Shown one piece after another: positions 55,755 to 58,215 of a DNA stretch of 64,000 bases. A program made the translations under genes and the position numbers. The stretch spans positions 1,996,335-2,060,334 of the forward strand of contig MU057521.1 of NCBI GenBank assembly GCA_013265495.1, given 5' to 3'. This stretch comes from Vicugna vicugna. Lineage: Eukaryota. The notes beneath the pieces are model-generated. The model was not told where the DNA came from. It worked only from the letters and a program-made list of their open reading frames with translations, and did not search any database. Position 1 is the stretch's first letter, and every line of letters begins with the position of its first letter.

Positions 55755-55812
55755 GCATTGGCTTAGGGGCCTGCCCTTGGCCCAGCAGCCCACCCACACT
55801 CCAACCAGCGCA

Positions 55813-56418
55813 TCACAGACCCAAGACATCCAGCCCGGACTCACATTCAACCAGATATGCACCTACCCAGCCTCCGTTATCCTGGATCCAGGTGTGCAGG
55901 TGCAGATTCAGGTACTCAGTCATCCACAGGACGATGTTGTCCACCAGGGGCGACATCTCCCGGTTGACGCTCTCCACACACATGACCCCACCGAACTCAA
56001 AGAAGGCCACAATCCTCCCCCAGTTCACCCCATCCCTGAAGAGCTCCTCCACCACCGTGGCAAAGCGTCCCCTCGCGGTGAAGGGCGTCAGGTGGAGCTG
56101 GCTGGACATCTCGGCAAAGTCGCGGCGGTAGCGACGGGAGAAGTCATCGCCGGCCTGGCGCAGGGTCAGGTGGACCACAGGTGGCACAGGGCTGAGCGCA
56201 GGCCCTGCGGCGGCGGCGGCAGGCGCGGTCGGGGGCGGCGGCGGCGAGGTCCTGGCGGGCGCGGGGGTGCGCCCGGGTTGGGAGGAGAAGATGCCCGGCG
56301 CGGGGGCGGTCCCCGGGGACACGGCGTCCCACTCGTAGCCCCTCTGCGACAGCTTATAGTGGATGTATTTCATCACTATCTCCCGGTTATCGTACCCTGT
56401 TCTCTCAGCGTGCGCCAT
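55813..56418 (-). CDS. BCL2: BCL2-beta-like read-through isoform, 201 aa ending ...[21 protein letters not shown], no transmembrane anchor
   Basis: Frame stays open 17 codons past the exon 2 donor to TGA at 55813-55815. AATAAA follows ~59 nt downstream. Same architecture as human BCL2-beta; expression not demonstrable from sequence. Confidence 0.6.
55867..56418 (-). CDS. BCL2: BCL2 apoptosis regulator, first coding exon (exon 2) of the alpha isoform; 184 codons, phase-0 donor, remaining CDS outside the window
   Basis: Translation [30 protein letters not shown] (BH4), [12 protein letters not shown] (BH3), [20 protein letters not shown] (BH1), [10 protein letters not shown] (BH2). Strong Kozak aggATGg at 56418. 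Donor TGG|GTAGGT at 55867/55866, the conserved BCL2 exon 2 boundary. Confidence 0.99.
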
Positions 56419-56462
56419 CCTTCCCCCGAGGAAAAGCAGCCGGGTACCAACAACACCTCTCG

Positions 56463-56487
56463 CCCCCGCTTCCCGCCCCACGGCCCC
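56463..56487 (-). promoter_or_regulatory. 5' UTR RNA G-quadruplex motif GGGGCCGTGGGGCGGGAAGCGGGGG
   Basis: Four G-tracts with 4/1/4-nt loops ~45 nt upstream of the ATG; same position as the described human BCL2 5' UTR RNA G4. Confidence 0.75.
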
Positions 56488-56501
56488 ACAAGAGAGAATA
56501 G

Positions 56502-56904: not shown

Positions 56905-57822
56905 TTGTATTTTTTAAGGACAGCATGATCCTCTGTCAAGTTTCCTTTTTTGTGAAAACAAAACAAATGCATAAGGCAAAGATTCCATCAGTCTTCAGAA
57001 CTCTCCAGTTATAGCTGCTTTGAAACTTCCAAATGAATCAGGAGTTGGGGGAGGGGGGTGTAAAAATTAGGAGAATTTCCAGTTTGATTCCCAGACTTCT
57101 CCTTTACAGAAATGTCAATCCGTAGAAATCCCAACCGGAGAGCTCAAGAGCACGAGAAAAGAAAGGCAGCGGCGGCGGCGGCGGCAGATGAATTACAATT
57201 TTCAGTCCGGTATTTGCAGAAGTCCTGTGATTTTCCCTCTTTCGGCAATTTACACGCGCGCACACACGCGCGGGCACAGACATGGATCTCTATCCGCGGG
57301 ACCGCTTCACGCCTCCACGGGAGAGAGACAGGGATCGGGGGCCGGTGGACGAGCCGGGAACGGGGGCAGGAATCCTCTTCTGATTAAACTCCGAACGGCA
57401 AATGCATTTTCCGAAAAGCTGCTTGATAAATGAAGGCTGGACGCGCCCGGCCCGCCGGTGCCGAGCGCGAGAAGCCCGCGCTGTGTGTGGTGCGGCCAGG
57501 GGTGGGGAGAAGGAGGTGGTGGGGGAGGGTTTTATTTTTTCCTCTTTTCCTAAAAAGGATAACTGCTACGAAGTTCTCCCCCCCCGGACCCCCTCTTCCG
57601 CTGCACCCCACCGGCGCACCCCGCCTCCGGGCTGCGCACCCTTTCTCCTCCTCCTGCTCCTCTGCGCGGCGGCGCTGGCGGCGCCCGCCTCCCCCGCGCT
57701 CCCGCCGCGCACCCGCTCTGGGCGATGACGGCCGCGCCGGCGGGGAGGGCCCGGCGCCCGGCACCTTCGCTGGCAGTGGCGGCGGCGGCGGCGGTGTCTC
57801 GGCGGGGAAACCGAGCGCGGCG
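56905..57822 (-). other. BCL2: BCL2 non-coding exon 1 (P1-derived leader; 5' end runs into the gap)
   Basis: Blocks such as GCCAGCGAAGGTGCCGGG, GGAGGAGGAGAAAGGGTGCGCAGCCCGGAGGCGGGG and GATTGACATTTCTGT match the recalled human P1 transcript leader. Confidence 0.85.
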
Positions 57823-58215
57823 NNNNNNNNNNNNNNNNNNNNNNNNNNNNNNNNNNNNNNNNNNNNNNNNNNNNNNNNNNNNNNNNNNNNNNNNNNNNNN
57901 NNNNNNNNNNNNNNNNNNNNNNNNNNNNNNNNNNNNNNNNNNNNNNNNNNNNNNNNNNNNNNNNNNNNNNNNNNNNNNNNNNNNNNNNNNNNNNNNNNNN
58001 NNNNNNNNNNNNNNNNNNNNNNNNNNNNNNNNNNNNNNNNNNNNNNNNNNNNNNNNNNNNNNNNNNNNNNNNNNNNNNNNNNNNNNNNNNNNNNNNNNNN
58101 NNNNNNNNNNNNNNNNNNNNNNNNNNNNNNNNNNNNNNNNNNNNNNNNNNNNNNNNNNNNNNNNNNNNNNNNNNNNNNNNNNNNNNNNNNNNNNNNNNNN
58201 NNNNNNNNNNNNNNN
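57823..58215. other. Assembly gap (393 N) over the P1 core promoter
   Basis: Run of N flanked by extremely GC-rich sequence, ~1.4-1.8 kb upstream of the ATG. Confidence 0.99.

Follow-up and report, generated by a model that had tools for sequence, protein, structure and literature searches.

Cleavage of BCL2 at Asp34 is the textbook case of a survival protein turned into a killer, and the cut reportedly converts the protein into a Bax-like fragment. The 64,000-nt stretch of Vicugna vicugna DNA analyzed here (hereafter, the window) raises the question of whether a mammal can carry a sound BCL2 gene without this caspase-3 site and, if so, what the loss means for the protein. The original prediction, made from the letters of the window, held that an in-frame deletion had removed the site and that the protein could thereby resist a feed-forward death switch.

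We found that the locus is the BCL2 ortholog and not a paralog (feature coordinates are collected in Table 1). Read on the minus strand, the first coding exon opens with an ATG at 56418 and W184 is followed at once by GTAGGT; the exon product runs from BH4 through the disordered loop, BH3, and BH1 and takes in most of BH2. Both conserved blocks were recovered with Pfam, namely the BH4 domain (PF02180, residues 8–32, E = 3.4e-14, with a score of 52.6 bits where 20.5 is the cut-off) and the core of the Bcl-2 family, comprising BH3, BH1, and BH2 (PF00452, residues 86–184, covering profile positions 1–100 of 100, E = 1.1e-31). When 5.8 billion proteins were searched, 591 matched at E ≤ 1e-20; the best of these were all named Bcl-2 and shared 86–92% identity with the exon product across 100% of the query, while identity to the human record (P0048) was 84%. 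Exon 3 lies ~152 kb further on, outside the window but on the same contig and strand, where it contributes 44 codons, preceded by an AG acceptor and closed by a TGA stop; it is 100% identical to residues 161–204 of the alpaca record XP_006205860.1 and brings the full protein to 228 residues (184 + 44). Only one BCL2 locus was found in the animal's own assembly (2.03 Gb, 12,405 contigs), the remaining family matches having 56%, 47%, and 39% identity. The matches at 56% and 47% are presumably BCL2L1 (Bcl-xL) and BCL2L2, which belong to the same fold family but are different genes. With a GT donor after the first coding exon, an exon 3 that retains its acceptor and stop, and a single locus, the gene is intact, unprocessed, and single-copy.

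Two other origins of the exon were considered and rejected: a processed pseudogene is ruled out by the GT donor and the intron sequence that follows the exon, and a second BCL2 copy by the search of the own assembly. As to the surroundings of the exon, reading through the donor (55813–55866, minus strand) yields a tail that ends in a stop at 55813 and resembles the BCL2-beta isoform, and the same BCL2-beta-like tail stands at the end of a Camelus dromedarius record (P0072). An assembly gap of 393 Ns (57823–58215) lies 1.4 kb upstream of the coding exon in a G+C-rich, CpG-rich region that probably corresponds to the CpG island of the BCL2 promoter together with the 5′ UTR; the long ORFs that span this gap in the ORF list are artefacts of the N run. 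Also upstream of the coding exon, in what is presumably the 5′ UTR, a (GGC)7 / 9-nt repeat tract occupies 57165–57187. An Rfam scan of the whole window gave no matches.

Table 1. Features of the Vicugna BCL2 locus, with positions counted from the first letter of the window
Feature	Position	Strand	Remark
First coding exon of BCL2	55867..56418	minus	184 codons, M1 to W184, from translation
GT splice donor	55865..55866	minus	Phase 0, directly after W184
E5 codon	56404..56406	minus	Gly in nearly all other sampled mammals
Deletion junction	56320..56328	minus	Codons D31 (GAC), A32 (GCC), V33 (GTG); placed by codon table and Camelus alignments
S34-P35 codons	56314..56319	minus	Ser-Pro, ancestral
Loop residues 32–80	56181..56325	minus	No Asp or Glu
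GCG/GCC triplet tract, Pro/Ala run	56207..56246		Tandem Repeats Finder: period 3, 13 copies
V163 codon (human A174)	55930..55932	minus	Lineage-specific change at a near-invariant position
L172 codon (human R183)	55903..55905	minus	Lineage-specific change at a near-invariant position

Within this gene, residues 31–34 read DAVS in the exon translation. YEWD31 is retained, and in both the window and the alpaca record an otherwise intact BCL2 has no Asp at the place aligned with human D34. Scripted scans of the exon product detected not a single DxxD motif and counted 0 Asp or Glu in residues 32–80, the next acidic residue being D91; the loop is thus free of aspartate, as predicted. In our comparison set, the sequence of the human record is DAGDVGAAPPGAAPAPG, and DAGD stands in the records of Bos and Bubalus, in agreement with the original prediction, according to which cattle keep it. 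Aligned with 27 other BCL2 proteins, the exon product shows a five-residue gap right after D31, which bears out an in-frame 15-nt deletion removing DAGD. Specifically, the junction lacks the five codons found in Camelus (AGDAG or GDAGA) between D31 and V33, and with these residues the protein lost its sole DxxD motif. The range 56296–56337, which had been assigned to this peptide, does cover Y28 to P41 but is one codon short of the peptide quoted with it, since G42 is encoded at 56293–56295.

One further proposal, that the deletion also created a new Ser-Pro and with it a possible kinase site, did not hold. S-P is already present in pig (P0010) and orca (P0013), at aligned residue 39, and baleen whales likewise have S-P at the place aligned with S34-P35, where Camelus has F-P, its Ser having changed to Phe. 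Because pig and whales already carry it, the Ser-Pro is ancestral, and the deletion merely shifts it five residues nearer BH4. The window protein keeps the proline-directed sites that correspond to human T56, S70, and S87, here T51-P, S58-P, and S76-P, respectively.

The camelid records place the deletion on the family tree. The NCBI alpaca protein XP_006205860.1 (P0055, Vicugna pacos) is identical to the window product over its first 54 residues, including E5, and has the same V163 and L172, which marks the window as alpaca or a very close relative. The Old World camels, represented by Camelus ferus (XP_032326474.1), C. dromedarius (XP_010978295.3), and C. bactrianus (XP_074211278.1), all read YEWDAGDAG(A/T)VFPG and continue AAPAPG. 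A BLASTP comparison of the window protein with that of the dromedary gave 177 identical columns out of 193, with one five-residue gap (DA-----VSPG versus DAGDAGAVFPG) and one four-residue gap. DAGD is also kept in pig, whales, cattle, buffalo, deer, and horse, and the Val that follows the gap is common to the window and Camelus only. Since Camelus keeps DAGDAG and shares this following Val, the alignments indicate that the deletion arose on the New World camelid branch, after its split from the Old World camels. Searches with residues 1–90, covering near and shorter lengths, revealed no deletion-bearing representative beyond the alpaca record.

The DNA around the junction suggests how the five codons may have been lost. 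Positions 56179–56325 have a G+C content of 83%, the loop DNA contains a 25-nt imperfect direct repeat, and a triplet tract underlies the Pro/Ala run. We infer that replication slippage on the ancestral DAG-DAG repeat, in DNA both G+C-rich and repeat-rich, would have caused the 15-nt in-frame loss. This mechanism fits the DAG-DAG repeat itself, the G+C content, the triplet tract, and the direct repeat, as well as the ambiguity between AGDAG and GDAGA that results from the flanking Ala codons and that, at the protein level, is compatible with microhomology. The Ala run falls four residues short of the dromedary's (the four-residue BLASTP gap) and six short of that of the Bactrian camel. This is a second in-frame length difference within the same exon.

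The same properties of the DNA could be turned against the deletion, in that the 15-nt gap might have come from a collapse of the 83% G+C stretch during assembly, or might be a polymorphism that the sequenced animal carries and not a trait of the lineage. The loop region is indeed extremely G+C-rich and repetitive, an N gap lies only 1.4 kb upstream, and the alpaca RefSeq model lacks 25 loop residues, a sign that the stretch is hard to assemble or to model; moreover, the agreement with alpaca RefSeq may stem from the same animal or a related assembly. However, the gap is exactly in frame, its flanks are clean and include the Camelus-specific Val, the alpaca record has the same 54 N-terminal residues, and the own assembly contains no second copy or alternative contig with DAGD. 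We therefore regard an artefact or a non-fixed allele as unlikely. Broader look-ups brought no independent evidence. Looked up exactly, with M1 or M16 as the start, the read-through open frame of the window was absent from a collection of 15 billion proteins, and a 28-mer across the junction had 0 matches in JGI metagenome contigs. Among 24 sequencing runs, 21 contained part of the 701-base stretch at 55800–56500 and 14 contained at least half of its 69 sampled words, counts that say nothing on the junction; likewise, the word shares, 0.87–0.88 in four runs of one organism (one study) and 0.56 in two other organisms, are uninformative on the junction and on the species. At the level of assemblies, the deletion reads as a real lineage trait.

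How unusual such a trait is can be judged from other mammals. In a tally built on the BCL2 protein searches, with one or more records per named mammal species (91 rows, 77 genera), Asp at position 34 was absent in 16 of the 77 genera and 19 of the 91 species rows, most species being represented by a single record and some states possibly reflecting individual variants or errors. Unnamed Logan/ENA/MetaClust proteins were left out of this tally, as were birds, reptiles, amphibians, additional isoforms of the same species, and models without the motif (e.g., P0072, P0087, P0095, and P0104). The residue was lost by deletion in Vicugna; it is replaced by Ala in Capra, Ovis, Capricornis, Budorcas, Ovibos, and Oryx (sheep, goat, ibex, bighorn, serow, takin, muskox, and oryx), by Gly in Manis, Smutsia, and Dipodomys (pangolins and kangaroo rats), by Asn in Vombatus (wombat), and by Glu in Canis, Megaptera, Thomomys, Elephas, and Loxodonta (dog, humpback whale, pocket gopher, and elephants). 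Doubtful among these states are those of the humpback, with DAGE where other rorquals have DAGD, and of the goat, with DARA versus DAGA. The whole loop is free of Asp and Glu, as in Vicugna, in Capra, Ovis, Capricornis, Budorcas, Oryx, Manis, and Smutsia, and sheep (EAGA) and pangolins (EAGG) have Asp at neither 31 nor 34. Residues 31–34 read DAGE in the records of dog, Mexican wolf, and dingo (P0157, P0147, P0150, and P0156) and EAGA in sheep record P0233. Insertions or deletions in the same stretch occur in Ochotona (DAGDAGAAPAPG), Erinaceus (DAGDPGDAGATPAPG), and P0241.

Mapped onto the usual mammal tree, these states would correspond to at least about eight independent losses of Asp34. Because Asp34 has been lost many times among mammals, the original prediction overstated the significance of the Vicugna case: the loss is real but a fairly ordinary lineage variant. 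With 16 of 77 genera lacking Asp34, and several of them having a loop free of acidic residues, the caspase-3 site is dispensable in many mammals. None of the papers that our literature searches turned up dealt with the BCL2 deletion of the alpaca or compared species at Asp34.

The loop deletion is accompanied by substitutions elsewhere in the protein, and these bear on whether selection has been at work. Among the 192 proteins that share the surrounding motif, human position 174 is Ala in 191, with Val only in the alpaca record, and human position 183 is Arg in 190 and His in one, with Leu only in the alpaca record; with a looser motif, the window and the alpaca record were the only ones of 231 tetrapod proteins to combine V163 and L172. 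Both residues sit in the helix before BH2. Among script-matched records, position 5 is Gly in 149, Ala in six, and Glu in one (the alpaca record), and Camelus has Pro4-Gly5 where the window has Ala4-Glu5. When polarized by outgroups, the derived changes numbered about five on the New World branch versus about three on the Camelus branch; it is the positions that are striking and not the substitution rate. An AlphaFold2 model of the exon product, made with a 28-row alignment, had a mean pLDDT of 41.6 and a pTM of 0.28, too poor to place D31, V163, or L172.

Human A174V and R183L could mean a changed BCL2 function in the New World lineage, and the pair of core replacements may have greater functional weight than the loss of residues from the loop. 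An adaptive account would go further and hold that G5E, the loss of DAGD, A174V, and R183L were all selected, for example for a higher apoptosis threshold under chronic high-altitude hypoxia. The singular Val174 and Leu183, the equally singular E5, and the derivation of all these changes on the same branch as the deletion agree with such an account. Nevertheless, we consider it improbable: the number of derived changes is unremarkable, the same Asp34 loss is found in lowland lineages (dog, sheep, goat, pangolins, and elephants), and our literature searches returned nothing that links camelid BCL2 to selection, the one camelid paper (PMC10440933) dealing, in the part available, with BCL2L13 and not with BCL2. 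Accorded equally little credence is the fuller version in which New World camelid BCL2 has undergone a burst of functional change, producing no killer fragment, binding its partners differently or differing in stability, and possibly being adapted to altitude hypoxia.

Least probable is the idea that caspases still cut the protein, now after D31 (YEWD/A), and that the death switch is kept. Tyr or Trp at P4 together with Glu at P3 is close to what inflammatory caspases prefer, and D31 is not only retained but now lies directly at the start of the flexible loop. Yet D31 is unlikely to have taken over as the cleavage site, because human BCL2 has the same YEWD/A while its D34A mutant is described in PMC2193081 as cleavage-resistant, so that D31 is no efficient caspase-3 site in the human protein; in addition, P4 is Tyr and not Asp, the Pfam BH4 match extends through residue 32 so that D31 stands at a structured edge, and sheep and pangolins have no Asp at either position.

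Our preferred reading, a tolerated loss of the site, leads to a simple prediction for the protein. The deletion removed five residues (AGDAG or GDAGA) and with them Asp34, the P1 residue of DAGD; without Asp34, the loop would not be cut, BH4 would stay in place, and no pro-death fragment would form. Asp34 is given as the caspase cleavage site of Bcl-2 in PMC2193081, which cites Cheng et al. (1997, Science 278:1966), and the same paper reports that D34A was no better than the wild type at protecting endothelial cells from TNF-alpha. The 300,000 characters available of a 2025 review of the BCL2 family (PMC11926181) contain 0 occurrences of D34 or Asp34. By analogy with the human D34A mutant, the BCL2 encoded in the window is predicted to resist caspase-3 cleavage of the loop. 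If the loss of Asp34 affects the late amplification of apoptosis at all, the effect is most likely mild. Since natural losses of Asp34 recur and the loop often gains or loses residues, the deletion most likely represents a lineage variant that is tolerated and nearly neutral, and its effect on the animal is probably small. Taken as a whole, the account of an intact, single-copy BCL2 in which a 15-nt deletion after the camelid split removed Asp34, with a predicted D34A-like protein and a tolerated, nearly neutral outcome, seems to us reasonably likely to be correct.

A BCL2 that naturally lacks Asp34 offers a ready-made control for the cleavage-switch model, and alpaca or llama cells could reveal what part the switch plays in vivo. 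The wider pattern may be of more consequence: of the mammal genera sampled, roughly one in five lack Asp34, including those of sheep, goat, and dog. This proportion suggests that the caspase switch serves as an optional amplifier rather than as a core step under conservation. It also suggests that results on BCL2 cleavage obtained in human or mouse should not be transferred to species without Asp34. This concerns common veterinary and experimental species, as dog and sheep have no human-type caspase-3 site. The two replacements at near-invariant core positions may, for their part, interest those who study the structure of BCL2.

Set beside known systems, the window locus is close to human BCL2, being the same gene with the same domain order (BH4, loop, BH3, BH1, and BH2, with the TM segment in exon 3), and its protein shares with the human D34A mutant the lack of an Asp at the caspase-3 P1 position. 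However, D34A is an engineered point change, whereas the Vicugna protein has a natural deletion of five residues; its loop is also 11 residues shorter than the human one (184 versus 195 exon-coded residues) and has no acidic residue at all, and E5, V163, and L172 stand in place of human G5, A174, and R183. The closest named relatives with a complete loop are the Old World camels, which have PPPPPTAP and the Val behind the DAG repeat in common with the window but differ in keeping DAGDAG and DxxD, in having Phe for Ser34, a longer Ala run, and P4/G5, and in carrying Ala and Arg, as is usual, at human positions 174 and 183. Judged from these alignments, Vicugna BCL2 joins a set of natural orthologs without Asp34, a state shared by fifteen further genera. 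In those orthologs the residue was lost by substitution, whereas in Vicugna it was lost by deletion, which also brings BH4 five residues nearer to the remainder of the loop.
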